Assembly (NCBI RefSeq): GCF_964204645.1
Contig: NC_134027.1
Span: 20,298,560-20,362,559, forward strand
Length of the DNA stretch: 64,000 nt
Direction: 5' to 3'
Source of the DNA: Tubulanus polymorphus
Taxonomy: Eukaryota; Animalia; Nemertea
Shown here: piece by piece, positions 15,233 to 57,030 of the stretch
Numbering within the stretch: position 1 is the first letter of the stretch
How the letters are laid out: the number at the start of each line of letters is the position of its first letter
Program-made: the position numbers and the translations under genes
The notes under the pieces: model-generated
Told to the model about the DNA's origin: nothing
Seen by the model: the letters and a program-made list of their open reading frames with translations, nothing else
The model's database searches: none

Positions 15233-17790
15233 TCAATCGAATGCCGCAGACGTTTCCAGTTCTTTGACGAATTCTTTGTGAGCTTTGTGAACCTCGTCCC
15301 AGAAATCCTGCATTCTTACTCTCGCCAACCACTCTTCCACTTTCGGCCACATTCTGAACTTGAACGTCGTCCATTTTAACTGAATTAATATAGTAGCTAC
15401 GTAACTGTCAGCGACGGTTAGTTCGCTACAACATAGATACTTTCTTTTCTCAAGGTATCGATTTTCGAGGACCTCTAGTAAACGAGAGAGTTCCCGGATG
15501 CCGGACTCGACCAGAGCCTCGTTTGCGGCATCCGACGGCAGACGATATCGGTCCAGGAATTGTGGGTAAGTATACCGGAAGCCAACGATTCTATTAATAA
15601 GAATGAGGAGATAATTGATTATCATTGTATCATGAAAAATACCAGGTAATTGTGTTTCACAGAAACTTTTAACATAATTATCATTAAACTTCCAACGGCT
15701 TAGTTATTACGGTGACAAACGAAACATCGGGTCTTCAAATCTTGAGATAAACGGAATCAAAAACACTCTAGCTATAAATCACTATACCTTAAGTGACTGT
15801 GAAGTTACATATTCATGCCTAACTCAAATATCTAATTCACATTTTACGACAGTGCACAACAAAGATTGTTATTTTCTCTATCCTATGATCCCAAAATATA
15901 TTGAAACCCTATCTGACATTTAAGCGAATCATTTGGTCATGTAGTCGATCTAAAGATCGTCCCTTTCTGTATCAAAAGCAGTTGGGTACCATTGGTACAG
16001 ACCTGTGCAGTTCTGAACATGCCCAACTGATTAACGATTCACATTTGTATCGTGTGACTTTATCCGGTCCGTAGCCATTGTAATTCGTGTACTCACATGC
16101 CAAATACCTCAAAATCGCCTGCCTGCAAAGGAATATGGGTATGCTCAAACAGGAATAACCGTTTCGAAAGTCCTAAATGCTTCGCGCATTATCCTATCTT
16201 TCTCAGCAACATCGAGTCTTCACATTGTTAATGTTTCAAAGCCAAAATCTACGGTTTTGTTTAAAAAAAAAAACAAAATTCCGCCCAACTATTATTTCAA
16301 ATATCTAAATAAGAAAATGATATCCATTCATTTTACATTTTTCACTGTGAATACTGATATTCTTATGAACGAATATTCGTCTTAGTGGACAAATACATTT
16401 ACGAAGGGATACGGGCTCAAGTATGAAATATGGAAAAGTAGTGGCCTTTTTACCTGACGTATCAATACGCACAATGCTGACCAAATATCTGCTAATCTTA
16501 ACATTCCCGACATACCGACAATCCGACATACCGGCACTCCCGACATACCGGCACACCCGACATACCGGCACACCCGACATACCGACATTCCCGACATGCC
16601 GGCAATCCGACATACCGGCAATCCGACATTCCGACACTCCCGACAAACCGGCACTCCGGCAATGCAGCAAACCTACATACAGACATTCTAGGCATTATTT
16701 AACCAGGCCAGTTGTTTTGGGAATATATATTTGTAAGACTGGGGCATTAGGTTCCTAATAATCCCCTGTAGAGAAATACCGGGATCGTGGGGCGTTTGTA
16801 TCCTAATATTCCCCTGTACAGAGTTGCTGGAATCGTGGGGCGTTCGGTTCCTAATATTCCCCTGTACAGAGGTGGTGGGATCGTGAGGCGTTTGATTCCT
16901 AATATTCCCCTGTACAGAGGTGCTGGGATCGTGGGGTGTTTGGTTCCTGATATTCCCCTGTACAGAGGTGCTGGGACCGTGGGGTGTTTGGTTCCTACTA
17001 TTCCCCTTGGATCGGTGGGCGTTCGGTTCTTGATATTTCCCTGTATAGAGGTGCCGGGATCGTGGGGCGTTCGGTTCCTAATAATCCCCTGTAGAGAGGT
17101 GCTGGGATCGTGGTATGTCAAAAGTCGGGTCGGATTGTCGGTATGTCGGGAGTGTCGGAATGTCGGGATTGCCGATGTTATAATTCAAATACAGAATTAT
17201 GTACCGAATCACTCATTCATTTTGTCTTAAGCTTCCGCAATGAGGGACTATATTACCATATCTTATACTTGATCCGGGATACGAACCCTTCAAACACGAC
17301 TATATCGCCGTCAACCAAAAGCGGTACTTCTCTGTGTGGGTACTGGTTAATGAATTCCAGTGTGGTGCCTTCTTTTTCAGAAAAATCCACATCGACTATT
17401 TTATGCGGGATGTTGTGCTGAAATAAAAACGTTAGGCTATATAAATCCAACTGTGGAAAATGATTACACAAGAAGCACCCTGCTATATAAGTAACAAAAA
17501 AGGTTGAATGCTGGTATCGATTTATAATGCACTCAAATCTATTTCATTTCTTCATTAATTCAATTGATGTTGCATCGCTATTCACGGACATTAATTTCTT
17601 TCAAAATTTGGACCCTTAAGCAGGAAGGTTTTCTTACCTGTAGTAAATACAGCCAAACAGCTCTGCACGGTGGGTAAATCCGTACCACGTACAGAGTAAC
17701 CGTCTCCTTCTCATTTTGCTCGCTTTCCTCCTCCTTAGTTCTCGTCTCTTCGGTACTGTTGGGGCGACATTTCGTGACAGCGTTTGCCAT
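15233..17790 (-). CDS. glutathione S-transferase, theta/delta-like, 4 exons (17790-17638, 17417-17287, 16122-16003, 15590-15233), 253 aa
   Basis: GT-AG exons with compatible phases total 762 nt. Motifs: PPCRAVWLYL, VPLLVDGD, EG|QAILRYLA, YLCCSELTVAD, WPKVEEWLARV. Confidence 0.9.
16500..17180. repeat. inverted (CCGACATA)-type arrays enclosing a 48-bp minisatellite (16750-17112)
   Basis: CCGACATAC/CCGGCA repeats at 16500-16690, their reverse complement at 17120-17180, and ~7.5 copies of TTCCTAATATTCCCCTGTACAGAGGTGCTGGGATCGTGGGG.. between them. Lies in GST intron 2. Confidence 0.85.
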
Positions 17791-18721
17791 TTCGTGTGAA
17801 ATGCATCCAAGTTTTCTGTTTCAGTATGTTATATCTGCGTTAATCCGTTAAGGAAATAAAAACCAGTTTTTGCAATTGAAACTCGTAAAAAGAAAATTCG
17901 CTCAAAGCTTTCTATGTAGAATATATGGCAAATCTATTGTCTCATTGTATAGTGGTAGTGTTAAGTTATGGATCCTGAAAATATTTCTGACAAAATGTCG
18001 ATTCTCTAACAAAAGAAATATATATCAACTAAAGAGTAACTAACTTAAAGTACCAAAATGATAAAAAATGAAAAAGGCTTTTTACACAAAACAATGACAG
18101 CCGTTTTTGCTGATAATTCAAATTTCATATATATCTTTTCATATATATCTATCAACCCTTTTCAGCCACCACATTTAGTCAACGAAATGATGTCAACGAA
18201 TCCAATTAGTGTATGCCAACCATTAGCCGGTATAATCCTATCCCGAACGAATTGAAAATGACCTGCCAGTCGCCATCGAAGTGAATGTAGGCGCATACGT
18301 ACATACGTACCAATTGAAATATTCCACTCAATGTATACTTATATCCATTTTTGAATGGAACAGCACGCGCCAAATACGGTTATATTCTGAATGGGTTATT
18401 TACAGATAATTTCAGTATTCATTTCTCCACGGGGAAGTCAATATTTAGTGCGTGCCGGTGAGGTCTAATAGGCATGAAATATTCCAGCACAGCCCACTTA
18501 TAGAATTTACAGTGCCAGTGGCCGGTCAAAGTTAATCAAAACCTGGTGTTTTACTTGTAGTTATGATTACGAATCAGAATTCTGATGAAGGGTCTACTTA
18601 ATCGAATTTCGTGTTGGTAATTTGTATAACGTTTGCCAACGGGTCGCACATTTCGGAGGTTTTGTTAACGTACATATAACAAACCTCAGGAAAGATTTTT
18701 AAAATTAAAAATGATCCATTG

Positions 18722-18756
18722 GAGTATTTTTCTAGTTGGCAACTAGAAAAATACTC
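18722..18756. repeat. perfect 17-bp-arm palindrome
   Basis: GAGTATTTTTCTAGTTG-G-CAACTAGAAAAATACTC. Confidence 0.85.
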
Positions 18757-19241
18757 GAATCGATTATGTATCAGTGGAATGTCGAAACTTAATTCGATTA
18801 ATGATACAAATTTGGTTTAAATTGAATATTTATCAGGCCTAAATCATATTTAGAAAATGCATTGCCCTAGTCTATAATAATATTTCGACTTAAATTTATT
18901 CGAAGCATTCGTAATACATAAATCACATTGATCAAAAATCTATGCACAAATCTACATCGACTTATTAAACGATTCGATTTTGAATTTTACCTGATTCCTT
19001 TTCTGCAATGATAAATGCTCAGCTCTTCACGGATTTCTTATAATGAAGGGTCGGTTCTAAGCCTCGCCGTCGGACCTTTTTTTTCTGCAGATTTTAACGA
19101 CATTAAAAGTTTTTTTCAAGCGTTGATTGGCCGCCAGCAAACTGTGGCATTGTTTGGCATTGGCATTGTTGTGAACTGGTACATCAACCGAGTCATCACC
19201 CTAATATGTAAGGTGTCGCGTGTAATCAGCTGTAGAATATG

Positions 19242-19583
19242 AGTAATAGGGATAATAGGCTTTCATACCAAAGGTCGAACGGTCGAGCTCATAAAAAATG
19301 AAAAACATGAAAATAATAACAATTTCTACTTGAATTAGTCGCGAAACTCATAAAAAATGAAAAATAATTCTCACACACTCGAATTTATTTTTCATTTTTA
19401 CTCGCTAGAAAAAAGTGTGAGTAAAGTGTGAGTGAAATAAATTCGAGTGTGTGAGAATTATTTTTCATTTTTTATGAGTTTCACTCCTAATTCAAGTAGA
19501 AATTGTTATTATTTTCATGTTTTTCATTTTTAATGAACTCGCCCCTTCAACCTTTGATATGAAAGCCTATTATCCCTATTACT
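19242..19583. repeat. 342-bp terminal palindrome (left end)
   Basis: 19242-~19392 is the imperfect reverse complement of ~19433-19583 and ends in CCCTATTACT. Confidence 0.95.
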
Positions 19584-19732
19584 CTTAAAATATTCATATA
19601 CATGAATAAAATATATATGAATAACATATAAATTGATAGATTATTCAATATAAAAGTGTGAGTGAAATAATTCATATTTAAAACATTGAATATTTATATT
19701 TGAATGAGTTTTAATACAAATTTTGTTATAAA

Positions 19733-20353
19733 ATGAAGAAAGAAGAAGAAGAACCCAACTTTAAAATCGAAATCAATGAAACCAATAAATAATTTTCACA
19801 GTTTTACATTAAAAATTATATTTCAGCAACAAATTTAGTGTCCGCAAGACATTATAAAATCGATAACATAACTATGATTAATCAAGTATTATCAAATGAA
19901 ACTTATTTAATTACTGAACTAGTAGATACTTTTGATAATGGTGTTAAAAATCCTAAAGTATTCAATACAGTTTTAAATTTTAAAGGAACTTTAGATGAAA
20001 ACATAATTAATATTCTTAAAACTCCTTTCAATGAAAGAAATAATGATATAATACTTTCAAAAGATTACAATGATTTGATTAACTTAAGAATTGAAAAAAG
20101 ACAATTATATTATTTCAATTTTGATAATAAACAAATTATCTATAACGAAAATTCATCAAATATTGGAATTCAATGTGAATTAGATAATGAAAAATCATTT
20201 AAAGATATAGCAGTTCAATGTAATTTAGATGATGAATTTAGAAAATTCAATCCTAATGAAAAAATTCATTGTTATTGCGGAGGTAAATATTCAAAATCAC
20301 ATAAATCAAAGCATTATGAAACAATTAAACATAAAAACTTGCGTAAAGAGTAA
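19733..20353 (+). CDS. arm ORF (left copy) with C-terminal CxC/H2 zinc-finger-like motif; one in-frame TAA at 19790
   Basis: ATG at 19733 (TATAAAATG) is in frame with the 171-aa ORF 19838-20353. C-terminus HCYCGGKYSKSHKSKHYETIKH. Confidence 0.6.
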
Positions 20354-20405
20354 CAATTCTACATTATAATTATTGAATTGAGTTAAATGATTTAAATATC
20401 TAATA

Positions 20406-21830
20406 GACTGTTAAAATGATAAATTGTTTGACAGTTGAAATGATAAATTGTTTGACAGTTGAAATGATAAATTGTTTGACAATTGAAATGATAAATTGTT
20501 TGACAGTTGAAATGATAAATTGTTTGACAGTTGAAATGATAAATTGTTTGACTGTTGAAATGTTAAATTGTTTGACTGTTGAAATGATAAATTGTTTGAC
20601 AGTTAAAATGATAAATTGTTTGACAGTTGAAATGATAAATTGCTTGACAGTTGAAATGATAAATTGTTTGCAAGTTGAAATGATATATTGTTTGACAGAT
20701 GAAATGTTAAATTGTTTGACAGTTGAAATGATAAATTGTTTGACAGTTGAAATGATAAATTGTTTGACAGTTGAAATGATAAATTGTTTGACAGTTGAAA
20801 TGATAAATTGTTTGACAGTTGAAATGATAAATTGTTTGACAGTTGAAATGATAAATTGTTTGACAGTTGAAATGATAAATTGTTTGACAGTTGAAATGAT
20901 AAATTGTTTGACAGTTGAAATGATAAATTGTTTGCAAGTTGAAATGATATATTGTTTGACAGATGAAATGTTAAATTGTTTGACAGTTGAAATGATAAAT
21001 TGTTTGACAGTTGAAATGATAAATTGTTTGACAGTTGAAATGATAAATTGTTTGACAGTTGAAATGATAAATTGTTTGACAGTTGAAATGATAAATTGTT
21101 TGACTGTTGAAATGTTAAATTGTTTGACTGTTGAAATGATAAATTGTTTGACAGTTGAAATGATAAATTGTTTGACAGCTGAAATGATAAATTGTTTGAT
21201 AGTTGAAATGATAAATTGTTTGACAGTTGAAATGATAAATTGTTCGACTGTTGAAATGATAAGACAGTTGAAATGATAAATTGTTTGACAGTTGAAATGA
21301 TAAATTGTTTGACAGTTGAAATGATAAATTGTTTGACAGTTGAAATGATAAATTGTTTGACAGTTGAAATGATAAATTGTTTGACAATTGAAATGATAAA
21401 TTGTTCGACTGTTGAAATGATAAGACAGTTGAAATGATAAATTGTTTGACAGTTGAAATGATAAATTGTTTGACAGTTGAAATGATAAATTGTTTGACAG
21501 TTGAAATGATAAATTGTTTGACAGTTGAAATGATAAATTGTTTGACAATTGAAATGATAAATTGTTTGATAGTTGAAATGATAAATTGTTTGACAGTTGA
21601 AATGATAAATTGTTCGACTGTTGAAATGATAAGACAGTTGAAATGATAAATTGTTTGACAGTTGAAATGATAAATTGCTTGACAGTTGAAATGATAAATT
21701 GTTTGACAGTTGAAATGATAAATTGTTTGGCAGTTGAAATGATAAATTGTTTGACAGTTGAAATGATAAATTGTTTGGCAGTTGAAATGATAAATTGTTT
21801 TACAGTTGAAATGTTAAATTGTTTGGCTGT
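20406..21830 (+). repeat. 24-bp satellite array, left arm (~59 units)
   Basis: Unit TGACAGTTGAAATGATAAATTGTT. Confidence 0.98.
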
Positions 21831-21948
21831 AAATTTAATTGTTATTTGATTTAATCATTTAAAAGTTTAATATTTAACAATGATGATAAAATATTTAATT
21901 AAAAACTAGCAAATATTTTATAAACTGTTTAATTTTTCTCTTAAATAA

Positions 21949-22167
21949 ATGGATGGTTTCATCCAAACTGGGAAAAGTGATTTGAAACATTATTTAGTAG
22001 CAGGTGGATTAATATTGGCCGCGCTTTTCTTTTATTATGAAAATATCAGTAAGGATTTGATTAATGAAAATATAAAATTGAGCAAGAAATTAAAGAAGTT
22101 AAATGGAAACAATCACAGGAAGTATAACAATAAAAAATTTAACGATTTAAATGATTTGGAGGATTAA
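21949..22167 (+). CDS. 72-aa core ORF with a hydrophobic (TM-like) segment and a basic coiled-coil-like tail
   Basis: TAAATAAATG start; YLVAGGLILAALFFYY. Confidence 0.5.
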   Translation: MDGFIQTGKSDLKHYLVAGGLILAALFFYYENISKDLINENIKLSKKLKKLNGNNHRKYNNKKFNDLNDLED

Positions 22168-22213
22168 AACAGCATCTTTTAATTTAATTTATTCTATATA
22201 TTTTGACTATAAA

Positions 22214-22519
22214 ATGAGTGAAAATAAGGTATTAGAAATATTACATCTAATATATAAAAATCAACAGAATATTAAATCAATTATTATGCTTACAGGTTTA
22301 TTTTCATTCTCAGTTTATACTATAAAACAGTTGTTAGAATTCTATGATTGCTGTAAAATTAGATACACTGAATTAATAGAAAATATGAATTATATTTCAG
22401 ATAGATTGAATAATATTAAATGCTGTGAAATATGTAATAAAAGATATACAAATTTAAAGAGTTTAAAAACTCATAAATATGTTCATGAACTTGATGAAAA
22501 ATTATATGATTCAAAATAA
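22214..22519 (+). CDS. 101-aa core ORF with a hydrophobic segment and a C2H2 zinc finger
   Basis: TATAAAATG start; IIMLTGLFSFSVYTI; CEICNKRYTNLKSLKTHKYVH. Confidence 0.6.
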   Translation: MSENKVLEILHLIYKNQQNIKSIIMLTGLFSFSVYTIKQLLEFYDCCKIRYTELIENMNYISDRLNNIKCCEICNKRYTNLKSLKTHKYVHELDEKLYDSK

Positions 22520-22623
22520 GAAATCGACTGTTAAATTAGCTGAAAATATAAAATATATTAGTTGAAATGTATGAAAATGAGTAAATTATATTTACGTTAA
22601 AAAAGGAGGGTTGAGGTGTCAAT

Positions 22624-22732
22624 GTATTAAATACGTATTAAATACGTATCAAATACGTATTAATGGTATTAAATACGTATCAAATACGTATTAATGGTAT
22701 TAAATACGTATTGATGGTATTAAATACATATT
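22624..22732. repeat. short tandem repeat of GTATTAAATAC-type units in the element core
   Basis: Direct observation. Confidence 0.8.
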
Positions 22733-22969
22733 ATGCTTTATTTCCGAAAATGAAGTAACAGAAGTAATTTATGTTTTAATTCATTCAAGTATGATATTGT
22801 AAATTCTTTACATTTGACTAGGATAATACAAGAGTGATATTAGTTAGTTGGCTTATTCAATAAGAGAAACAATGAAATAATACAAGAGTGATACTAACAG
22901 TTAAAGTTATTGAATTTCTTGTTAAATCTATTTGAATTCTAGTAAATTCTTGTTAACCAATAGCGCGAC

Positions 22970-25074
22970 AACTGTCAAACAATTTATCATTTCAACTGTC
23001 AAACAATTTATCATTTCAACTGTCAAACAATTTATCATTTCAACTGTCAAACAATTTATCATTTCAACAGTCGAACGATTTATCATTTCAACTGTCAAAC
23101 AATTTATCATTTCAACTGTCAAACAATTTATCATTTCAACTGTCAAACAATTTATCATTTCAACTGTCAAACAATTTATCATTTCAACTGTCTTATCATT
23201 TCAACTGTCAAACAATTTATCATTTCAACAGTTGAACAATTTATCATTTCAACTGTCAAACAATTTATCATTTCAACAGTCGACAATTTATCATTTCAAC
23301 TGTCAAACAATTTATCATTTCAACAGTCGAACGATTTATCATTTCAACTGTCAAACAATTTATCATTTCAACTGTCAAACAATTTATCATTTCAACTGTC
23401 AAACAATTTATCATTTCAACTGTCAAACAATTTATCATTTCAACTGTCTTATCATTTCAACTGTCAAACAATTTATCATTTCAACAGTTGAACAATTTAT
23501 CATTTCAACTGTCAAACAATTTATCATTTCAACAGTCGACAATTTATCATTTCAACTGTCAAACAATTTATCATTTCAACTGTCAAACAATTTATCATTT
23601 CAACTCTCAAACAATTTATCATTTCAACAGTCGAACAATTTATCATTTCAACTGTCAAACAATTTATCATTTCAACTGTCAAACAATTTATCATTTCAAC
23701 TGTCAAACAATTTATCATTTCAACTGTCTTATCATTTCAACTGTCAAACAATTTATCATTTCAACAGTCGAACAATTTATCATTTCAACTGTCAAACAAT
23801 TTATCATTTCAACAGTCGACAATTTATCATTTCAACTGTCAAACAATTTATCATTTCAACTGTCAAACAATTTATCATTTCAACTCTCAAACAATTTATC
23901 ATTTCAACAGTCGAACAATTTATCATTTCAACTGTCAAACAATTTATCATTTCAACTGTCAAACAATTTATCATTTCAACTGTCAAACAATTTATCATTT
24001 CAACTGTCTTATCATTTCAACCGTCAAACAATTTATCATTTCAACAGTCGAACAATTTATCATTTCAACTGTCGAACAATTTATCATTTCAACAGTCGAA
24101 CAATTTATCATTTCAACTGTCAAACAATTTATCATTTCAACTGTCAAACAATTTATCATTTCAACTGTCAAACAATTTATCATTTCAACAGTCGAACAAT
24201 TTATCATTTCAACCGTCAAACAATTTATCATTTCAACAGTCGAACAATTTATCATTTCAACTGTCGAACAATTTATCATTTCAACAGTCGAACAATTTAT
24301 CATTTCAACTGTCAAACAATTTATCATTTCAACTGTCAAACAATTTATCATTTCAACTGTCAAACAATTTATCATTTCAACAGTCGAACAATTTATCATT
24401 TCAACTGTCAAACAATTTATCATTTCAACTGTCAAACAATTTATCATTTTAACTGTCAAACAATTTATCATTTCAACAGTCAAACAATTTAACATTTCAA
24501 CAGTCAAACAATTTATCATTTCAGCTGTCTTATCATTTCAACTGTCAAACAATTTAACATTTCAACTGTCAAACAATTTATCATTTCAACTGTCAAACAA
24601 TTTATCATTTCAACTGTCAAACAATTTATCATTTCAACTGTCAAACAATTTATCATTTCAACTGTCAAACAATTTATCATTTCAACTGTCAAACAATTTA
24701 TCATTTAAACTGTCAAACAATTTATCATTTCAACTGTCAAACAATTTATCATTTCAACTGTCAAACAATGTATCATTTCAACTTGCAAACAATTTATCAT
24801 TTCAACTGTCAAACAATTTATCATTTCAACTGTCAAACAATTTATCATTTTAACTGTCAAACAATTTATCATTTCAACAGTCAAACAATTTAACATTTCA
24901 ACAGTCAAACAATTTATCATTTCAACTGTCAAACAATTTATCATTTCAACTGTCAAACAATTTATCATTTCAACTGTCAAACAATTTATCATTTCAATTG
25001 TCAAACAATTTATCATTTCAACGGTCAAACAATTTATCATTTCAACTGTCAAACAATTTATCATTTTAACAGTC
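22970..25074 (-). repeat. 24-bp satellite array, right arm (~87 units, inverted)
   Basis: Reverse complement of the left array, with higher-order blocks marked by 15-bp truncated units. Confidence 0.98.
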
Positions 25075-25126
25075 TATTAGATATTTAAATCATTTAACTC
25101 AATTCAATAATTATAATGTAGAATTG

Positions 25127-25747
25127 TTACTCTTTACGCCAGTTTTTATGTTTAATTGTTTCATAATGCTTTGATTTATGTGATTTTGAATATTTACCTC
25201 CGCAATAACAATGAATTTTTTCATTAGGATTGAATTTTCTAAATTCATCATCTAAATTACATTGAACTGCAATATCTTTAAATGATTTTTCATTATCCAA
25301 TTCACATTGAATTCCAATATTTGATGAATTTTCGTTATAGATAATTTGTTTATTATCAAAATTGAAATAATATAATTGTCTTTTTTCAATTCTTAAGTTA
25401 ATCAAATCATTGTAATCTTTTGAAAGTATTATATCATTATTTCTTTCATTGAAAGGAGTTTTAAGAATATTAATTATGTTTTCATCTAAAGTTCCTTTAA
25501 AATTTAAAACTGTATTGAATACTTTAGGATTTTTAACACCATTATCAAAAGTATCTACTAGTTCAGTAATTAAATAAGTTTCATTTGATAATACTTGATT
25601 AATCATAGTTATGTTATCGATTTTATAATGTCTTGCGGACACTAAATTTGTTGCTGAAATATAATTTTTAATGTAAAACTGTGAAAATTATTTATTGGTT
25701 TCATTGATTTCGATTATAAAGTTGGGTTCTTCTTCTTCTTTCTTCAT
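25127..25747 (-). CDS. arm ORF (right copy), inverted duplicate of 19733-20353
   Basis: Same protein except L>W near the C-terminus and K>I in the short pre-stop segment. Same in-frame TAA. Confidence 0.6.
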
Positions 25748-25897
25748 TTTTATAACAAAATTTGTATTAAAACTCATTCAAATATAAATATTCAATGTTT
25801 TAAATATGAATTATTTCACTCACACTTTTATATTGAATAATCTATCAATTTATATGTTATTCATATATATTTTATTCATGTATATGAATATTTTAAG

Positions 25898-26239
25898 AGT
25901 AATAGGGATAATAGGCTTTCATATCAAAGGTTGAAGGGGCGAGTTCATTAAAAATGAAAAACATGAAAATAATAACAATTTCTACTTGAATTAGGAGTGA
26001 AACTCATAAAAAATGAAAAATAATTCTCACACACTCGAATTTATTTCACTCACACTTTACTCACACTTTTTTCTAGCGAGTAAAAATGAAAAATAAATTC
26101 GAGTGTGTGAGAATTATTTTTCATTTTTTATGAGTTTCGCGACTAATTCAAGTAGAAATTGTTATTATTTTCATGTTTTTCATTTTTTATGAGCTCGACC
26201 GTTCGACCTTTGGTATGAAAGCCTATTATCCCTATTACT
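25898..26239. repeat. 342-bp terminal palindrome (right end)
   Basis: Reverse complement of 19242-19583. Confidence 0.95.
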
Positions 26240-27379
26240 AATATGGATCCCCAATCAAGGATCTATTTTCATGGAACTTCTTTTAGTTCCATATTATTAC
26301 GTATTTATGTTTCAGCTCGCGCATTAATTCCTCAATTTACTCCAAACATATCTCTACACGTTGCACTATAATTCCGTATATCGGACTTGGGCCCACTAGG
26401 TAAATTTAATTGGGACTCAAAACGAACGAATGAAGTATTGTGACAACTTTCCCAACGATGAATTAAGGTTAACTATGTGAATGATGTTGTTTCTTATTCA
26501 GATATCAACCTGGGAGCGGACCGGTATGACGATAAATAGAAGTCAACAAAAGAGAGACAATGCTTGATTTACATATCTTTCAACACGATTGATCATATTT
26601 GATTGGCTTGATCAATACTGTATATATTATATGTAATGTGCACAGGCAATCAAAAGTCATAAGTCAGCACTTCAGCATCTTTTCCTGAATCCGAAGACGA
26701 GTTCCCGGCAATATATATTTGCAATTGTACTAAGCAAATTATTTTGAAAGAAACAACCACTTTTAAACTTGACTGGTAACTGAAAATACACAATTGACGG
26801 CAATAGAATGTGTCAGTAGAAATTTCCTGTGATGACAGGCTAGTGAGCCCTAAAAGTACACAACAGTAATAGAGGGATAATTTGCAAGGGAACGGATATT
26901 TTTCTTTTCGTGGAAACGAAATAATGCAACGTTTATCGAGGGAGCGAAGTGTGTTTCGTTCGAACGAAATAACGAAAAGTTACCCAAATTGCCAACATTT
27001 TGAAATGTCCAAATATGGGGATTGCAAAAAAGTATTCATTTTCACCATGTCACCTCCGGGGCTCCGTTTAAAGGCGTTTCACTTAAAATGAAATTCATGC
27101 GCGATGGTAGCGATGTACACTTCTGGGAAGCAATGTCAGAGAAAAATTTGTGTTTGACAATCCGATAATCAGAACAGAACCAATGTCGAGGAATAGTGGA
27201 TCTTCCTTGCTGTGATTGCAGCTTTCATGAGTTTTCGTTACGATTCATTTAAACAATTCAGACATGTAAAGATACTGAGTAAGTACTTTTATGTACGCTG
27301 TATAGCTCTAATATTTGTTCCCGGAATAGCTAAACGTTGTATAACTCGTATCAACATTTTAGGCCTACTGCACAGATAC

Positions 27380-27738
27380 ATGAGGAGAGAATCCCACAAT
27401 GATAATAAAAAGTCCGAAAATGAAACTTCGAGATAGTAGTTTATTTCAACGTTTCGACTATATCCTAATAGTCATCTTCAGGAATAATTACCCCTTAGTT
27501 TGCTTCCCTTTAATCTATTTTAGCGTGTAACTGTTTCTACGTTAATTTTCCTTTAGTTTGTATCATCTCTGATTACTTTAATTAGTCTCTTTGTCTCTGG
27601 ATTGTATATATATATCTCATAATTTCTGTAGTATCTCATTATTCCTGAAGATGACTATTAGGATAAAGTCGAAACGTTGAAATAAATCGAAGTTTCATTT
27701 TCGGACTTTTTATTATCATTGTGGGATTCTCTCCTCAT
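27380..27738. mobile_element. Penelope-like inverted pseudo-LTR remnant
   Basis: ~105-bp inverted arms (ATGAGGAGAGAATCCC... / ...GGGATTCTCTCCTCAT), each containing a CTGAAGA-stem-GAAACGT motif. Confidence 0.65.
27638..27688 (+). ncRNA. minimal hammerhead ribozyme-like motif (mirror copy on the minus strand at ~27440-27488)
   Basis: TTATTC-CTGAAGA-T-GACT(loop)AGTC-GAAA-CGTT-GAAATAA: CUGANGA core, stem II, GAAA, palindromic ACGT stem III and an imperfect stem I. Confidence 0.55.
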
Positions 27739-29574: not shown

Positions 29575-30050
29575 TATATGCGCAGCTGACTGATTGACTG
29601 GACAACTGCGTAACTGGACGACTAGGCGTCCAGATGACTGGACGACTGAATGACTGGACGACTGGATGACTGGGCGATTGGATGACTGGCTGATTGGGCA
29701 ACTCGCTCAGGTGTTGATGGTGGAGGTAGTGGCGATGATGATGGTGATGGAATTGACAGTCATGAGAATGAAAATGGTGGTGATGGTTCAGATTGGGATG
29801 ATAGTCATGACGGTGATAGGTGATGGTGGAGAGGATGATAGTGATGCTGGAGAAGGTGATATGAAGATGTAGGTGATAGTGGTGATGTCGATGTCGAAGA
29901 AGGCGATGAAGGTGATACTGGCGAAGATAGCGATGATGGTGATACCGGAGAAGGATATGGTAATGATGGTGGTGATAGTGGTGATGTTGTCCAGTCATCC
30001 GGACATCCAGCCATCCAGTCGCCCAGTCATCCAGGCAACCAGTATATATA
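29575..30050. repeat. foldback-like repeat: GACTGGAT arrays inverted around a (GATGGT)n core; related copy at 56230-56660
   Basis: GACTGGATGACTGG blocks on the left, CCAGTCATCC blocks on the right, low-complexity core. Confidence 0.65.
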
Positions 30051-30168: not shown

Positions 30169-33100
30169 TCAGTAATGATAACTTCCGTTATCTCTAAACG
30201 TTAGCCCGTTCTTTTCTATCAATCTATGTTTGCGGGGTTTTTCAAACAGACTCGTTTCATCGCCCAGATCATCGTCATCGCTATTGTCATCATCTACCTT
30301 TCCTTCGGCGATCAGCGGCTCGTACGTGTTGCGTTCCGTCTCGACCGGCACGGTGCCGCCTCGTCGGTAACAACTTTTGGTCAGAAGACAAACGCCGAGT
30401 GACATCACAATTATCGTGCAAACCGCGATCACAACGATGTACGTCTGCAACTCCAGACCGAACGTGTCGAACCACGGAATAAGGCGTTTCGGGAAAGGTC
30501 CGTGTTGGTACTGCACGATCCAAAATTCGTCGAGCGTGACGTTCGTGCTGAACGATTTCTGCACCCACTGTAAATGGGAGTCGTTGTGAGCTCGCATGAT
30601 TCCGTAACTGCCATAAGCATCATCACCCAGCTGATAGGCGGACCACGGCGCTGAAATTAGAACGAAAGATCGAAATATTTCAAAATAATCAATATGAACC
30701 CTACGTACTACACACACATTCAGGAAAAGTCTTAAATTCATTGAAGACATGACTTGTAACGAGCATATATGTTCAGATTTTACAAGGACCATCTGGAGCA
30801 CCCGTGGTGTTCAAATCTGCAGAGTGGCCCCATAACTCTTGACCCATATAGTACCTTCATAACAAGTTTCGTCATATCGGATAATAATTGTAGGACATGC
30901 TTGTAGCGATTTCAAGATTTTACAAGCGTGAACTGTACAGCGCCCCATAGAGTAGTAAATTGGGGAAACGGCTCAATAGATTTTTAGCCCATGGGAAATA
31001 ATATCTATACACCAAATTTCGAGATATCGGATAATAAGTGAAGGACGAGTAGCGATTTCAAGATTTCACAAGCGCAACCTGTACAGCCCCCTAGAGATCA
31101 GTTTAGGAAAACGGCTCTTTAGATCTTTAGATATTGGCCCAATAGTATCGACATACCAAGTTTTGTTAAGATCGGATAATGGTTGTAGGACTAGTAGCGA
31201 TTTAGAGATTTTACAAGCGCCACATGTGCAGCACCCCTGAATGTCAAATTGGAAAAAAAGCTTTATAACTTTTTAGCGCTTGTCCCATATCATTTCCATA
31301 CCAAGTTTGGTAAAGATCAGAACAGAAATGTGACACAAGTAGCAAATTGAAGCAATAAAGTTGACGGACGGACAGATGGACTGTCGGCCAGATGTGCAGA
31401 CAGATGACGACGGCGGATTATCCCCTTAGCCCATCATCTCCGCCAAAAATTCATTCGCAAATGAATAAACTTAACGGTTTGATGTTCCAGGTTTTAAAAA
31501 AGTGACGCTTTTTTATGCTAGAATGTAGAATATCATATAAATCATAATTTTGTAGTAAATTTGGTTACTACCTTTTACCATGTAAGAGCACCCATGGGCG
31601 ACAAGTACCTCCAAAAATATCATGTTTTGTTTACGGCAGAAATGTACGATCGCTGATTCAGGCCATTCTAGAACGGGCCCATTTTTTGTTTGACTGCGCT
31701 AGAAAATTCATTTTGGTTTTTCGCGCAGTAATTCAAAAATTTGGGTTTTCTCACACGATAATTCACAAATTTGTGTTTTTTCTCCAGAGAAAACAAAAAA
31801 TAGGCCGACGGATGTAAAATTTCTTTTTCGTTCCTCTAGCCGTACAGAAAAATTTTTAAGTATGGCCTAAGTCAGCCACAGAAATAAATTTCTTCGCATC
31901 CGGAATTGTCTTCGCCGCGGCTACGAGAAACGAAACATGTTTTTATGAAGGTAATTGTTGTCCATAGGCAGCAGGGGTGGTTCGCTCCTCCCCGGTAGTA
32001 CTCACCAATTTTAGTCTTAAATGTGTCTAAGCCCTCGTTATTTCCGGCGGCTCCGTTGATGACGTGTACGGGTGCTTTAGGTGCTACGTACGACCTTTCG
32101 TAGACATGGCCTCTATACAGCGGCCACGTTCGTTCGTACGAATGCTCGTGAGCCTGCACCACAAGGTCGACGCCGTATTTATCAAAGATATCCTCTAACC
32201 TAGAACAACAGAATCATACAAATTGATATCTATCATAAAGCTAAATGATATTAGAATATCAACCATTTCTAATATTTTATCATACAATAGGGAGGTTATC
32301 GTTTGTTTGCAAAGACCATGCGCATGACGTCATAGTTTATGTGACTGCCAGAGTAACGGGAGGACAATAGGGATCTAGAAACTACTGGAATCAATATGAA
32401 ACCATCAATATTGTGTCGTCATGTGGAAATTACATGGCTGCGCGACTTTGGAAGACAAACACGTGCTAATGAAATCGCGTTTACAGTGACATCATGCTCA
32501 GTGCGGTTTGATCGATATTTTTGCGCGAACATAATCTTTTTTGGGATTAGAAAACTACTCTGTCATGTCAGTCAGATATTGTATATACGAGATCAAAACG
32601 TCCATGGCAGCATGAATTTTGAAGTCCATAGGTCTTCTTGCAGGCATGCAGGCTTTTAAGGCTTGACTACGTCATTTTTTTTATAAACACAATACGTGAT
32701 TTACATTGCACACCTTCGAAGTTTCTAATTCCCCTAATCATCCTTTGGTGTTACGTTTGAAAAGCCTGAAGCGCTGGTTGGAAAATATCATATATGAAAT
32801 CTGCAAGACCTCTATAAGATGTTCTTTCAATTATATATCAATATCTAGGGAGCAGGTGTAGATTTTCCGTAATCTTTTATGATTCAGAAATTCGAAAATC
32901 GGTGAATGTATATGAATCAAGTGTGTTCGAACTTTAAATCGCCAAAAAGCTCTACCGTACCCTGCTCGTAATATCGTATCCCGCTTTTCGCAATCGGGGT
33001 AGTCCGTGTTCGAACAATACATCGGCCGGTGGCCAAACGCTACAATCCAAGGTCGTTCGACGCGACTGACATTAGCTCGTTCAAGATCATGAATTAGCCA

Positions 33101-47292: not shown

Positions 47293-47509
47293 TGTGGGCT
47301 ATGATTGCCACATTAAATGGTCCAGGTTTGAGTAAAATAAGCAAGACCGCCGGAGAGGTGAACAACGACCAATATGTTTGGTGTCTAAGTAAACTCTGAT
47401 TTATTTATCTACTCGCTACAGCATAAGTTCAAGCGGGGCTTACATAGGCGGGGTTACATGAACTGAGGGGAGTGCGTTACTGGTAACTGACATATAACAA
47501 TTCCCGACA
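47293..47509 (-). repeat. BEL 3' LTR
   Basis: Preceded on the minus strand by the PPT GCCCGGGAGAA (47510-47520). Confidence 0.95.
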
Positions 47510-47763
47510 TTCTCCCGGGCGACAGAAAATTACTAGATAGATGTAATTAAGAAAAATGTTACTACAACTAAATAATATCGATATTCGAATAAATGATGCA
47601 TATGTATTGTTATAAATTTATGATAGTCAGATAAGGAACTACTGACAACTAAAAATGATGTGTTTAATTCTAAAACTAAGATTATAAAGTCTATTACATT
47701 GCGTTGTGTTTGTTGTTTAGGTCTCCGAGTGACCTAGCGTTGACTTGAGCGGTTATCAATTAA

Positions 47764-50700
47764 TTAACTACTACATGTATCAGACAGCACGTTAGCCCAT
47801 CTACTGATGTTATTTCTAGCCTCGGCAGCTGCCTTTCTCGTCGAACGACGTGTGACGGGTGCAGAATTTACGTTTGAGTCCGGTTTGCACGTGTTCGAGG
47901 GATCTGCGGCGCGCACTTCAAGAGGGTAGAGTTTGCTAGTTGGTCGATTAGTCCTGCCATTCGAAATTTTGATCTTAGCGGTTCTAACTAAGCCGTCGTT
48001 CCCCGGAACGAGTTCCTCGACCAGTGCTAGTTTCCATTTCAGACGCGAATTATGATTGTCGTCGTGTACTAACACGACATCACCCTTTCTGATGGTATTT
48101 CCAGTTAATCCGCGATTTTTAAATTGGATGTGTCTTTCGCGTAGGGCTGTTACGTATTCCTCAGCCCAACGTTTCCACAGATGTTGTTTTAATGAACCGA
48201 TTCGCACCGAACGTTTTTCAAATTCTGACGGCATATTTCCAAGCGTCGGGTCGGTCAGTTCATCGTAACTTACGAACAGATGCGGTAAACTCGTGAGAAC
48301 GCGACCGTGAAGGAAATGTGACGGGGTTAAAGGTTCTGGGTCGTCCACATCAGATGAACAGTACGATATCGGGCGATTATTTACAGCTTGTTCAGTCTCT
48401 GATACGATCGTAATCAATTCCAGCAGGGATAGTCGCGCACGCCCCAGAACTTTTTTGATCGCGGTTTTTGTTATTCCAACTAGCCTTTCGTAAAATCCAC
48501 CAAACCAGGGGCTCGACGAGTTATCATGACCCACTCTGATCGGTGTAGGCTGAAGTACTTTCGGGTTTCGATCGATTCGTATATCTTTTTGATAGCATTG
48601 TTACTCGCAATAAAGGTTGATTGGTTGTCCGATATTATTTTCTGTGGTAACGAACGTCTGGCAGCCATTCTCCTCAACGCGTGTAGGAATGTTGACGTAG
48701 TCATGTCCGTTACCACTTCCAGATGGATGGCACGCGTGTTCGCGCAAGTAAACAAGCATATATACGCGAGTGACTCCTCCCCGGATTTCGACCGAAGATG
48801 TAGTGCACCGGTGAAATCTAAACCACAGACGGTGAAGGGTGGAGCCTCTTTCAAACGCGAAGATTGTAACGGAGCGCAGTTTGGTAACGAGTACGGTTTA
48901 CCGGTGATATATTTGCATATGACGCATTTTCTCAACAACTTCCGAGCCACTTGACGAACACGAGTAATCCAATACTTTTGTCGGACTACGGTTATAGTAG
49001 ATTCTGTACCGAGGTGTTTGACCTTATTATGGGAATCCAGTACGATTAATTCACTATATCTACAATGAGGTAACAATATCGGAAACTTTGCATCGTATCC
49101 GATGGGCGCGTTATGGAGACGGCCTCCAACACGAATGATATCATCTTCTAAAAACAAACGAAGTTTCTTTACAAGTGATGGCCTTTTCTTAGATTTATGT
49201 TCTAAACTAACTTTCACGTCATTGAAGTAACTCGATTGAACACCTTTGTTCCATAGATCTTCGCATTCTGCTATTTCGTTAGCAGTTATTTCATCCGATT
49301 CATGGTTTTCGCGTCTTGACTTTTTAATAAATCGTCGAACTAGCGCGGTTACGCGTAATAGCCTTGTTAACGAAGTGAAATCGTTCTGATCTATTACGTT
49401 ACATATTCCGACTTCGTTGTTTTCGCAGATTTTTTCGTCAGGCTGTTTGTCCTCGTCCATTTCGGTTATGAGCAAAACTGCTCGATCGATCGTGTCGCAG
49501 GTGGGATAATTACCGTTGCTAAGCCAGCTAGGGCCATTCCACCAGAGCGTGCATCGCGTAATTTGTTCGCACGATATTCCTCTGCTTAACATATCAGCCG
49601 GATTGTCACTCGTCGGACAATATTTATAGCGACCGATAGTTGTCACCGATTTAATTTGACGCACGCGATTAGCTACGAAGACGGGAAGCTTTTTCTCGGA
49701 GTTGATCCAGTGTAACACAATCTGGCTATCTGACCAGAGCACGCACTTTGTTATGACTATTTCAGTAATCAGACTGTTTCGAACGTAATCTGTTAATTTA
49801 GCACCAATCAACGCGGCCATTAATTCTAACTGCGGTATCGTATGTTTTTTAACAGGTGCCACACGCGATTTAGACATGACGAGTACCGTCTGATCTCCAC
49901 GTTTTAGATAGACGCAAGCGCCGTATGCCAATTGGCTCGCATCGCAGAAAGTGTGCAATTCGTACTTAGCTTCCGATTTCGCTTCCGATTTCGAGTAGCG
50001 TCGATCAACGCGTATTTCGCTAATTTCACGCAATTCCGTTATCAACGAGATCCACGATTCGACTACGCGCTCGGGTAGGGTTTCGTCCCACTCATAACCT
50101 TCCGTCCACAACTGCTGTACGAACATCTTCGACTTAATATGGACAGGCGAGACGTATCCTAACGGGTCATAAAGGCTCGAGACAGCCTTAACGATTTCGC
50201 GTTTGGTAATCAAGTCAGGATTGGCGAACGCTTGTTTGTTTTTGAATGACAGCGTATCATTCACCGTATCCCATTGGAGTCCGAGCGCAGAAACAATAGT
50301 TTTCTCGTCCGATAAATTATCGGAATCTGCTTTGGCCTTTAGTAACGAAGAGTTAGAAGCATAAGACTGAAGTTTAAATCCGCCGTTTTTCATTATGCTA
50401 TTGATATTCGTATAGTATTTCATGAGATCGCTCTCAGATTCACATCCACTAATCGCGTTGTCGACATATATATTTTTAACTAAGTCACGTGATACATGGT
50501 TATTATAATTATTTAGATGAAAACGAACAGTAGCATTCAATATAAAGGGTGAACTCACCACGCCGAACAATATAACCTTGAAGCGATAGGTTTTGAGTTC
50601 ACTTTCTGGATTCTTAGGATCAGTCAACCATAGAAATTTCGTATACTCGCGATCATCATCGTGCAGACCAACTTGAAGAAACGCCTTTTCGATATCCGCC

Positions 50701-51791
50701 GACAATCCGAATTTATGCAACCTGAATCTGATCAGGATTGAACCGAGGTCATTCAGCAGCGTCGGACCGGTCTCCAAACAATCATTTAAACTAGGGTTTC
50801 CCGCGGTCGATAAAGACGCGTTATAGACGATACGGATAGGGGTTGTTGACGATTCCTTCTTGACCGCGCGATGCGGTAAATAATGACCTATGTTTCGGTC
50901 ATCATCTGTGACTTCTTCGATGAAGTCTCGCGATAATTGATCCATGATAATGTTGTGGTAAACATTTCGAATTTGCGGCGATAGCCGACGAATCATCGAT
51001 TGTGTTATGTTTCGAGTAACATAGTAATTTGTCGGAAGGGGGGCGTGTCCACTCTTCCACGGCAACTTCGCAGTATACCGTCCCGTGTCGGATGTCGTCA
51101 GGCTTGATTGACAGTAGTCGAGTAGATTGAATTCTTTTGAAGCCGCATCTGTTGCATCAGTTACGCCTATGGATTCGAGATCCCAGAATTTTTGGAGGTT
51201 GACTTCCTCCGAACGATGTGACGTAACATCCACGTTGTAAACTCGTGCAGTATTTATTGGATCGCAATCACTAAACGGTCCAGAGAGAAGATACCCTAAT
51301 TTCGAAGATACTGCCGTGGGTCCATTTCCGCGGATTGTGTGGTTACCGACCACTGACCAATAGAAATCGGCACCGATTAAAATGTCGATTTCGAAGTGTG
51401 ATTCGGTAGAAAACGGATGCGCTAATTTCAAACCTGTCAGATACGGTAAATCTTTGATAGATCTGCCGGTTTGGTTTCGCATTGTCGACGCAATTTGTGG
51501 AACAATTAACGCCGTTATCGGTATGTCGGTTTCATCAGAACATAGTGTAAAGTTCGCAACAATCAGTGACCGCGCACTTGATTGTTTCGCGCCAAATGTG
51601 TTGATCGATATAGTTTCGGTTTCTTCACTGTTTATATATAATCTTTCGGCTGTTCTTTGAGTAATAAAACTCCGCTGAGCGCCCTCGTCGAACAAGATGT
51701 TTACGTTAGTCGTTACGCCTTCGCGACTTTTTGCGTTCGCGATAGCTGTTTTTAATAACACTGTTCCATCGGCGGCGCCCAGATACTGATG
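47764..51791 (-). CDS. BEL pol (protease, RT, RNase H, integrase), with a 1-nt frameshift at ~48510
   Basis: LFDEGAQRSF, YLPHRAV, SADIEKAFLQV, YVDN, FCDAS, GLDFTG, SDN; RAP|WFGGFYERLVG is broken in a C4 run. Confidence 0.93.
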
Positions 51792-53045
51792 TCAATCCCT
51801 GTCAGCTTTCTCATCGGTTGATTTTGCGGCCACAGGTGTGGTTGATTTTGCATCTAAATGAACTGATGTGTGATGCTTTTTGCCACAGTTTGTAACTCTG
51901 CATCTGTTTTTCGATAAGCATTTCGTCGATTTGTGACCGCTCGAGAGACAATTAAAGCATAAATTATCCCTAGCAACAATTTCTCTGCGTTTTTCAGCAT
52001 CTGGAAACGTTTTACAGTCCACCGCAACGTGATTGATCTTTTTGCAGAACGCACATTTTCGATCGTTTTCCCGTGAAAAATTATGTCTGTTTTTCGCCGT
52101 AACTGCGAACGCTCCCACGGTCGGCGAATTGGCGGGAAAATCATCCTCTATCGTAAGGCTTTCGATACTAGCCTCGAAGGCCTCAATTTCTTTAAGGAGT
52201 GACTTTCTTAGATCAGTCAGGCTCCAAGCATTGTTACCGTGGTCTCTGGTAATCTGTTGTTTAGTTCCGCTCGGTAGTTTTTCCATTATGATGGGTACTA
52301 ACAGATCTCCGTACGATTCTTCGGATTTTCCGAGTGAATTTAATCCACGAATATAAGATTCCAGAGAGTCATAGAAATTCCGTAGTGAGTTGTCGCGATC
52401 ACTCGGTGGTGAAAGCTCCCACAACGCTTTCATGTATGCGGCCACAATTTTGTGTGGTGTCCCGTACCGGTTTAACAAAAGTTCCAAAGCTTGATTATAA
52501 TTTTCGTTTGTTAAACTCAGGTTTTCGATCGTTTTTGCAGCGTCGCCCTTTAGCTGTGCGGACAGATATTGGAACTTTTGGATATTCGTTAAGTTCTCAT
52601 CACTATCAACTGCCGAGAAAAATCCATCGAAGAACGTTTGCCATTTCAGAATATCGCCATCGAATGTTGGCAAAGATAACTTCGGCAACTGGATCGGTCT
52701 TTTCGCAGTTTTTTGATGCTCGGATTTCATGCGCGTTGTCGGTTCGATTTGATTCTTTTTCCGTTCGAGGTATCCGATGAAGGTTGATAGTTCGATGTTT
52801 ATTTCGTTCATATAATCATCGGTTTCACATACGAGGTCTTCGAGTTTCCCTAACTCTGCGTTCGCAATCAGTTCCGAATCATATCCTGCGATAACTTCCA
52901 ATTTTGTACGTATTCTAGTTATGACGCCAGACAATTTGTCTAGGCTTTCGTCACTTTCCGAATGAAGTAAATCCCTCGCCTGATCAAAAAGTTTCGTCAT
53001 CTGTCGAATTTGCGCATTTCGCATTATCTCTTCTTTCGACGGCAT
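51792..53045 (-). CDS. BEL gag
   Basis: LPKLSLPTFDG, KFQYL, and three Cys/His knuckles (CAFC..H..C, CFNC..H..C, C...C..HH...H). Confidence 0.93.
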   Translation of the reverse strand: MPSKEEIMRNAQIRQMTKLFDQARDLLHSESDESLDKLSGVITRIRTKLEVIAGYDSELIANAELGKLEDLVCETDDYMNEINIELSTFIGYLERKKNQIEPTTRMKSEHQKTAKRPIQLPKLSLPTFDGDILKWQTFFDGFFSAVDSDENLTNIQKFQYLSAQLKGDAAKTIENLSLTNENYNQALELLLNRYGTPHKIVAAYMKALWELSPPSDRDNSLRNFYDSLESYIRGLNSLGKSEESYGDLLVPIIMEKLPSGTKQQITRDHGNNAWSLTDLRKSLLKEIEAFEASIESLTIEDDFPANSPTVGAFAVTAKNRHNFSRENDRKCAFCKKINHVAVDCKTFPDAEKRREIVARDNLCFNCLSSGHKSTKCLSKNRCRVTNCGKKHHTSVHLDAKSTTPVAAKSTDEKADRD

Positions 53046-53077
53046 CTTGGCTGAGTTTCTGAATTTACTGCTTGTAT

Positions 53078-53095
53078 ATCCTGGTCACGGCACCA
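53078..53095 (-). promoter_or_regulatory. primer binding site, tRNA-His-like
   Basis: TGGTGCCGTGACCAGGAT, 3 nt inside the 5' LTR boundary. Confidence 0.8.
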
Positions 53096-53098
53096 AAA

Positions 53099-53315
53099 TG
53101 TGGGCTATGATTGCCACATTAAATGGTCCAGGTTTGAGTAAAATAAGCAAGACCGCCGGAGAGGTGAACAACGACCAATATGTTTGGTGTCTAAGTAAAC
53201 TCTGATTTATTTATCTACTCGCTACAGCATAAGTTCATGCGGGGCTTACATAGGCGGGGTTACATGAACTGAGGGGAGTGCGTTACTGGTAACTGACATA
53301 TAACAATTCCCGACA
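53099..53315 (-). repeat. BEL 5' LTR
   Basis: Matches 47293-47509. Confidence 0.95.
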
Positions 53316-55800: not shown

Positions 55801-56650
55801 AATTTGTATTTACACGAGTGAATGTGAAATTTGGACAGCTGTCAATGTCCGTAGTACAGAATTAAGTCCTGTAGTGTCAGTTACTAGGACTGCTGGAAAT
55901 CAATTGATAATAGTTTTTCATAAGGAACCGCTCCTGCTCGAATCTTTGTTGTATACGAGTCCAAATACGCAGAGCTAGCTTTGACCACTTGATTGAATTG
56001 GATTTCTGGTTTATATAGGCTTGATATGCTGAATTTCGTATTACCGCAGAATCTGCCGTAGAAACCTTCACAAATGACACAGAAAGTTTGTTAGGATCAA
56101 CACTTAAGAGACAGTTGGTGTCACCTCGGGTACTTATTTGATGGTTTTCACAGAGCTATGAAAAAACCACAGCTTTACCAGTCCGCCTTATCAAGCCCAA
56201 ACCCAAAACAAGTTTTGACGTGATTACTGTACGTACAAGGTGATATGGTATGCTGGGCGACTAGAAGACCGGTCGACTGGATGACTGGTTGACTGGATGT
56301 CTTGACGACTGGTCGACCGAGTGACTGGATGACTGGGTGACTGGCCGACTGGATCACTGGATGACATTACCATCATGCCTATCTCCACTATCTTCACAAT
56401 CACCTTGCTCGGCATCACCATTACCACTACCATCCCCATCACCTTCTCCAGCATCTCCGCCATCAACACTGTCGTCTCCACCATTTACACAATCACCTTC
56501 TGAAACATCACATAACAATTATCTATCACGACCATCACTATCATCATCTCCACCGTTTCCACCATATGCACCATCACAATCTCCACCATCTGCAACATCA
56601 CCTTCTCCAATCGGCACCACAGCCGCGCCGCCACTGCCATCAACATCACA

Positions 56651-56788
56651 GTCATCGCCCTGTAGGGTGTCGCCTGTCATCGCTTGCTATAGAAGATGGA
56701 TCCCCAATCAAGTATCTATTTTTGTTCATGGAATTTCGTTTAGTTCCATATAGCTACGCTTTTATATTTCAGCTTGCCCATTAATTCC
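56651..56788 (+). repeat. uninterrupted paralog of the sequence split by the 19242-26239 element
   Basis: Aligns by eye to 19192-19241 joined to 26246-26331 (TAGAA[G/T]ATG|GATCCCCAATCAAG). Confidence 0.85.
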
Positions 56789-57030
56789 CCGGAAATTGAA
56801 TCTACACATTACACTATTCTCACTACGTGGCGCTGCGGACAGACGGAAGAATCAGGTTGGCTTTGGTTTTCCTCGCTGTCGTTCGTGCTTGTGCGGTTGT
56901 GGTGGTTCACAGCTTGGCTTTGTGCTGTGACCATGTACTTCTGTTGAACTGTGTGTCCTCTTTTGTGCAGTCTGTCGTCCGGGGTATTCCACTGTGTGTG
57001 GAATAAGGGGTAGTCCACTGTGTGTGGTCA

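Follow-up and report, generated by a model that had tools for sequence, protein, structure and literature searches.

The window analysed here is a stretch of 64,000 bp from the genome of the nemertean Tubulanus polymorphus (GCF_964204645.1, contig NC_134027.1, forward-strand positions 20,298,560 to 20,362,559). It contains a largely palindromic mobile element, the subject of this report, at positions 19242-26239 of the window (6,998 bp). The element is bounded by a target-site duplication (TSD), AATATG, found at 19236-19241 on the left and at 26240-26245 on the right (both read on the plus strand). Its ends are AGT..ACT, and therefore belong to the AG..CT class; the first six bases are AGTAAT. 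Two inverted arms of 2.6 kb (left) and 3.3 kb (right) surround a unique core of 1,143 bp (21826-22968), which is common to many copies and contains an 11/31-bp minisatellite at 22624-22733. The arms account for 84% of the element length, and 74% of the length is able to pair. The GC content of the element is 20-29%, whereas that of the flanks is 38%.

From the outside inward, each arm consists of a 342-bp terminal palindrome (left, 19242-19583; right, 25898-26239), a unique portion and a 24-bp satellite array. The unique portion lies at 19584-20405 on the plus strand in the left arm (20% GC) and at 25075-25897 on the minus strand in the right arm, where it holds the second copy of the arm open reading frame (ORF; 25127-25747). 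The left array (20406-21825, plus strand) comprises approximately 60 units, some of them 17 bp long, and the right array (22969-25074, minus strand) approximately 89 inverted units. In the outer ten or so units, the order is near-identical on both sides, and the inner parts carry higher-order repeats of their own. The satellite-free portions of the two arms (1,164 bp on the left and 1,165 bp on the right) differ at five positions, one indel and four substitutions, and the outermost 487 bp are without any difference. The first-pass annotation had described the same order of hairpin, zinc-finger ORF and satellite, arms of about 2.6 and 3.3 kb around a core of about 1.1 kb, and about five differences between the arms; our measurements bear out each of these points. 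Its long terminal inverted repeats (TIRs), with tandem repeats inside them and a middle domain between them, place the element structurally in the foldback class.

An empty paralogous copy of the host repeat that was hit by the insertion is located outside the element, at 56633-56830 on the plus strand. The right flank of the element aligns to 56693-56788 with 83% identity, and the left flank aligns upstream of this segment with a score of 55, as compared with a mean of 14.7 and a maximum of 28 in 963 control windows. At the empty paralog, the two flanks meet through one single hexamer. Thus, a host repeat was interrupted by the element, with a duplication of exactly 6 bp: it is a genuine insertion. 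The TSD is 6 bp long and not extendable, and the sequences outside it are not inverted copies of each other. The chance of finding the exact hexamer AATATG at a given site is approximately 5e-4. The 6-bp TSD and AG..CT ends that had been noted from the sequence are therefore present, with the hexamer occurring once at the empty site. The element sits, at 19190-26330, in a fragment of a host repeat family that has 8/24-bp tandem repeats of the GACTGGAT type; other members of this family were observed at 56259-56830 and 29633-30043, and these two copies are diverged and inverted, with 67% identity over 267 bp.

The distribution of the element was analyzed with contigs from four sequencing runs (X1-X4), which belong to one study and represent at most two samples of unrecorded kind. 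For the left end and the left arm, the contigs were compared with 18200-20405; the results on loose ends are from 24 of 388 rows and those on sequence differences from 40 of 144 rows. The flank was nearly uncovered, and depth was high inside the element with a sharp onset near 19242. Loose ends before 19242 were found in nine contigs of X2 and seven contigs of X3, and their mutual agreement was only 0.45-0.48. Thus, these contigs have different flanks, that is, they derive from different insertion sites. Among the 1,417 X1 contigs in this comparison, 324 were at least 99% alike to the element, 447 were 95-99%, 476 were 90-95% and 170 were lower. The core was covered in 28-30 of 30 bins in each of the four runs. 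These results show a dispersed and diverse multi-copy family with a fixed left end, varied flanks and the same core. The median depth ratio of the core ORFs to the arm ORF was 0.47 (X1), 0.76 (X2) and 0.78 (X3), and that of the hairpin to the arm ORF was 2.7, 7.5 and 8.6, respectively (X4 was omitted as shallow); because the single-copy flank is nearly uncovered, these ratios are not copy numbers. At most, they hint that copies often have two arms per core and that the hairpin is also found independently of this arm.

Two further groups of contigs were observed. At 19632, two contigs each of X2 and X3 keep the hairpin and approximately 50 bp of the arm and then diverge; they possibly represent another family that shares the end, and would then be a lead to the helper. 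At 21949-22115, diverged contigs (approximately 85% alike) share the 72-aa ORF of the core and then leave the reference near 22046-22115. Relatives of this ORF thus occur in other contexts within the runs.

None of the contigs of the runs spans the element or its junction with the flank, as would be the case if the structure had arisen by fold-back during assembly or by a single inverted duplication at this locus. An assembly fold-back was nevertheless rejected, because the flanks are collinear and rejoin at the empty paralog through a single hexamer, the arms differ at five positions and the arrays are unlike in length and inner order. Furthermore, the ends, the arm and the core are all multi-copy among independent contigs. 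We regard this explanation as extremely improbable.

To what extent the arms owe their likeness to recent insertion or to homogenisation was left undecided by the first-pass annotation. Among the 40 of 144 difference rows, ten positions of the arm ORF have a letter other than that of the left arm in 80% or more of the X1 depth. At eight of these sites, the letter of the left arm is also present in the right arm, and at two the right arm carries the majority letter. Since 8 of 10 lineage-specific variants occur in both arms, the two arms must have become alike later than the separation of this lineage from most of the family. We therefore favour homogenised arms over a merely young insertion.

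The left terminal palindrome (19242-19583) is imperfect, with half-arms of 149 bp, nine mismatches and a centre of 44 nt, and the right one (25898-26239) is its exact reverse complement. The half-arm contains subterminal repeats. The 342-bp unit has its own AGTAATAGGG..CCCTATTACT ends, and the terminus AGTAATAGGG is found in an outer and an inner copy. Since the palindrome starts and finishes with the element terminus, the terminus is present four times; the 18-bp end motif occurs four times in the window, always within the element, with 0.09 occurrences expected. In a single-stranded fold, base 26239, with which the top strand ends, is paired to 25898 and gives a flush primer-template junction. 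The 3' end of each strand can form a flush 149-bp stem. The folding energy was -148 kcal/mol for the 3'-terminal strand and -140 kcal/mol for the 5'-terminal strand, as compared with -24 kcal/mol for shuffled sequences. In all eight informative mismatches (G-T, G-A and G-G), the G is on the 3'-terminal strand (two-sided p = 0.008).

In other copies, exactly symmetric deletions of the hairpin tip leave shorter hairpins of 102+2+102 bp, with a depth of 3,550 in X1 and present in X2 and X3 as well, and of 63+63 bp. Three of the seven hairpin joints checked were exactly symmetric, two of these three being one site. Rolling-hairpin replicons of the parvovirus type are characterised by a Rep/NS1 gene and by a terminal hairpin that occurs as flip/flop isomers. 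In the element, both terminal hairpins have the same orientation and no Rep gene was found. The long hairpin with an inner terminus, the strand-biased mismatches, the symmetric deletions and the small genes duplicated in the arms are the distinctive features of this element.

A TSD of 6 bp is the length produced by Polintons; IS3EU/GingerRoot elements also have 6 bp, with TA..TA or TG..CA ends (PMC10045372), and were rejected because the element ends are AG..CT. The end motifs of Mavericks begin with AG and include (AGT)2//(ACT)2, which is commonest in vertebrates (PMC8097293). The AGTAAT end agrees with (AGT)2 in five of six bases, the motif list itself being from vertebrates. From the TSD and the ends, dependence on a Polinton/adintovirus helper would be the best fit. 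Besides the 6-bp TSD and the AG..CT (AGT..ACT) ends, the element shares long TIRs, low GC content and intronless small ORFs with Polintons/Mavericks as described in PMC8097293 and 10.1101/2023.08.22.554363. In contrast, those elements are 13-25 kb long with TIRs of 100-1,500 bp, and encode pPolB, an RVE integrase, an ATPase, a protease and a capsid protein, genes that were not found in the 6,998-bp element with its arms of 2.6 and 3.3 kb. It is further distinguished by an end that is AGTAAT, not (AGT)2, and by terminal hairpins of 342 bp in which the terminus recurs on the inner side. An autonomous Polinton/Maverick was therefore rejected.

Another explanation is a cut-and-paste foldback element of a DDE superfamily unrelated to Polintons. 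In this explanation, the 342-bp palindrome is an ordinary MITE, a miniature transposable element with inverted repeats, at both ends of a composite, and host gene conversion keeps the arms alike. The outer, tandem-repeat and middle domains are as in Tetris (PMC4079207), the half-arm contains the subterminal repeats mentioned above, and the hairpin is deeper than the arm ORF in X1, X2 and X3, as if it also stood alone or on other families. However, Tetris has TSDs of 8-10 bp and most foldbacks are assigned to Mutator (PMC4079207), the 8-10 bp required of a Mutator-type foldback being at odds with the 6 bp observed; the IS3EU/GingerRoot ends do not match either. A MITE offers no reason for the strand bias of the G mismatches. 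Moreover, the ORFs are intronless and AT-rich, and the finger matches described below are not transposase remnants. We consider this explanation unlikely.

The arm ORF (19733-20353, plus strand) is a frame of 206 codons from the ATG at 19733, or of 159 aa from the ATG at 19874. Its C-terminus carries a zinc-finger motif, CxCGGxY..H..H..TxKH. Fingers of this type may be typical of large eukaryotic DNA viruses. A stop codon interrupts the frame at 19790, in the left and the right arm alike. This stop is absent from 40 of the 144 difference rows, which all reach approximately 47% or more in some run; it is probably widespread among the copies. The possibility that an intron spans the stop was rejected: an acceptor-like site exists at 19801, yet 19736-19790 lacks a GT donor, and no GT..AG joint was present among 15 of 31 joints. 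The variants listed for the arm frame are synonymous in 12 of 32 cases, the expected share being 0.18-0.26 (p = 0.007-0.10, depending on the model). Upstream of the ATG at 19874, 5 of 8 are synonymous (p = 0.006-0.03), which suggests that the frame was once coding from 19733. The ATG at 19733 and the start of a core ORF at 22214 share a TATAAA-ATG context.

The core contains two ORFs on the plus strand. The first (21949-22167, 72 aa) has a hydrophobic stretch at residues 16-30 and a basic tail, and 5 of its 9 variants are synonymous (p = 0.009-0.06). Its 19-residue hydrophobic mean is 1.48, equal to that of the second ORF, and we can only guess that it may encode a membrane protein. The second (22214-22519, 101 aa) ends in one C2H2 zinc finger. 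Its variants show no synonymous excess (5 of 20). A 122-aa version of this ORF was rejected, as most other copies have an extra base at 22210, upstream of the ATG at 22214 (5,873 of 6,653 X1 depth). The rows behind all of these synonymous counts are selected and non-independent.

By ORF scan and Pfam, no transposase, polymerase, helicase, integrase, ATPase, protease or capsid frame was found in the element. The largest non-satellite frames are 186, 122 and 72 aa, and Pfam yields only C2H2; the long ORFs that run through the satellite were rejected, as they simply translate its 24-bp repeat. These results, with the dispersed copies and the true insertion, support the non-autonomous mobile element proposed in the first-pass annotation. 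Its view of the small ORFs holds for the zinc fingers, found in two ORFs, and is weak for the membrane protein, whose hydrophobicity is moderate. Among proteins near the query length, no homologue of the three ORFs was found. For the arm ORF, HMMER against 1.84 billion representatives gave nine matches, all to the last 30-45 residues and none below 1e-10. They are unannotated environmental proteins (E = 2e-8 to 2e-4), and a GIY-YIG nuclease domain was present in 3 of the 6 scanned, that is, in 3 of the 9. The ESM Atlas returned values of 0.80-0.81 for the arm ORF, which are leads only, and generic C2H2 proteins for the core ORF. PHROGs matches (E = 0.03-0.07) were rejected as chance, the single-sequence AlphaFold model of the arm ORF had a pLDDT of 32.5, and no match was found in Rfam.

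In place of a classical pPolB Polinton, the helper may be a hairpin-ended animal virus similar to polinton-like viruses (PLVs) or virophages that encodes an RVE integrase and replicates by means of another gene; the element would then be a transpoviron-like satellite whose three small genes are still acting. The absence of a perfect (AGT)2 from the element end and the synonymous excess in the arm frame and the 72-aa ORF are in favour of this explanation, and the size, the TIRs and the small zinc-binding gene recall transpovirons (PMC5499653). On the other hand, the SF1 (superfamily 1) helicase gene of transpovirons was not found in the element, so that a transpoviron proper was rejected. In neither arm is the arm ORF intact, the C2H2 ORF lacks a synonymous excess, and the variant rows are selected as stated. 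In addition, the viral contigs gave no match to the end, the satellite unit (0 matches), the arm ORF or the C2H2 ORF. We hold this possibility to be as improbable as the DDE foldback.

Non-autonomous Polintons are reportedly listed in the 2006 Polinton paper and in Repbase, which lowers any claim to novelty. In our literature search, no description of a palindromic Polinton satellite was found in the available parts of PMC3014272, PMC6431247, PMC8502044, PMC11662393, PMC5932611, 10.1101/2023.08.22.554363, 10.1101/2024.01.15.575659 and 10.1101/2025.02.07.637071, among others. Within the same search, the phrase non-autonomous Polinton/Maverick was used only for Tlr1, which is sometimes named a non-autonomous polinton (PMC5499653). 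PAL-type palindromes of C. elegans as Polinton ends were rejected, as the literature available did not bear them out.

Several known systems resemble the element in part. Virophages and PLVs of the protist Halocafeteria seosinensis have palindromes at the TIR extremities beside the TSD, hairpin priming has been proposed for them, and mention is made of derivatives that have few genes yet retain TIRs and TSDs (10.64898/2026.07.28.741278). However, their palindromes are 52 nt long (subtype 5) and they are complete 24-kb protist viruses, whereas the present element is non-autonomous, mostly palindromic and in an animal, with palindromes of 342 bp. Foldbacks of the Tetris, FB and Galileo type are likewise non-autonomous, with long TIRs, an outer unique domain, inner repeats and a middle domain; Tetris has no ORFs and a TSD of 8-10 bp, in contrast to the 6-bp TSD, the AGT..ACT ends, the ORFs in arms and core and the hairpins described here (PMC4079207). 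Transpovirons and Tlr1 are also approximately 7 kb long, TIR-bounded and helper-dependent, and have a small zinc-binding gene (PMC5499653). The element differs from them in that an SF1 helicase and an integrase were not found, and in being chromosomal with a TSD and largely palindromic.

The reading that we prefer, and consider somewhat probable, is that of a non-autonomous element with arms kept alike, integrated by the integrase of a Polinton/Maverick-type helper and re-copied through a hairpin-primed single strand. That the element works like a Polinton-type satellite seems to us slightly more probable than the contrary. In the scheme that follows, helper, excision and priming are all inferred. 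A retroviral-type integrase of the helper would read the AGT..ACT ends in trans and make the 6-bp TSD, the step we hold most probable. A released single strand would either pair end to end over 2.6 kb, as a panhandle, or form a fold at the 3' end, after which the duplex would be restored by fill-in synthesis. For protein-primed viruses, the panhandle is the usual, though unproven, model of how inverted terminal repeats regain their homology (PMC11886824). In either state, mismatch repair or re-copying would make the arms alike. The folded 3' end could prime the fill-in without a terminal protein, and a hairpin-priming model with terminal palindromes next to TSDs exists for protist virophages and PLVs that encode an integrase (10.64898/2026.07.28.741278). 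Some single-strand step is probable, and hairpin priming in particular is possible but doubtful. The satellite arrays would grow independently by slippage in their inner portions, in which the two sides do not pair in register, and the small ORFs may be accessory genes from a viral-type ancestor that are now partly decaying.

In a bolder version, which we think rather unlikely, the family would be satellites of an animal Polinton-type virus without protein priming. Their strands would self-prime on the 342-nt hairpin and use the integrase of the helper, both arms would be re-copied in every cycle, the hairpin would spin off as a MITE, and the zinc-finger and membrane genes would be the element's own.

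Several observations weigh against a hairpin-primed Polinton-type satellite. An exact search with the element end gave 0 matches in viral contigs and 0 in metagenome contigs, and no loci related to the arm ORF were found in viral contigs, nor any related to the C2H2 ORF in either of these contig sets. The ORFs are without homology to Polinton genes, and only a 27-residue finger matches anything. A perfect short terminal repeat is thought to be needed for jumping-back in protein priming; AGTAAT has none, which weakens the case for a classical pPolB Polinton as helper, although it fits hairpin priming. The TSD was measured at one insertion only, and the depth ratios come from the runs of a single study. 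The bias of the G mismatches concerns 8 sites only, 4 of which are explicable by cytosine deamination; since these four G-T mismatches could stem from deamination of a single strand, they would also imply a folded state. The homogenisation could reflect one past fold-back or host gene conversion, not a step of every cycle. Finally, cut-and-paste foldbacks also yield long TIRs and inner tandem repeats (PMC4079207).

The remainder of the window contains host exons and other repeats. On the minus strand, host exons for a GST C-terminal domain (15233-15703) and a purple acid phosphatase C-terminal domain (30169-30810) were recognized. Also on the minus strand, a full-length BEL/Pao long terminal repeat (LTR) retrotransposon occupies 47293-53315, with long gag and pol frames, 218-bp LTRs matching at 99.5%, TG..CA ends and a 5-bp TSD (TATTT); it looks young. 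Together, this retrotransposon and the two exons give the window the look of an animal genome. A MITE-like element at 27380-27738 has inverted ends of approximately 109 bp with 92% identity. Another, palindromic and approximately 400 bp long (62189-62587), contains 61-bp internal tandem repeats, and its ends bear no relation to those of the 7-kb element. At 16505-17168, 57031-57392 and 59509-59824 there are tandem arrays of 17, 48, 75 and 4 bp that are likewise unrelated to the 7-kb element.

Excision and replication of Polintons/Mavericks are not known to have been demonstrated by experiment, and the single-strand panhandle model is itself an inference. The element is likely a hitch-hiker on a virus-like Polinton-type transposon, and would offer a way into the question of how such elements copy themselves. 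A high-copy family with concerted arms and an inner copy of the terminus records a replication intermediate in its sequence; the divergence of arms versus copies, the hairpin orientation and the stand-alone hairpins can all be counted in one assembly. The finding would carry the hairpin-priming idea from protist virophages and PLVs to an animal element, and would tie Polinton-type elements to the formation of MITEs and satellite DNA in animals.

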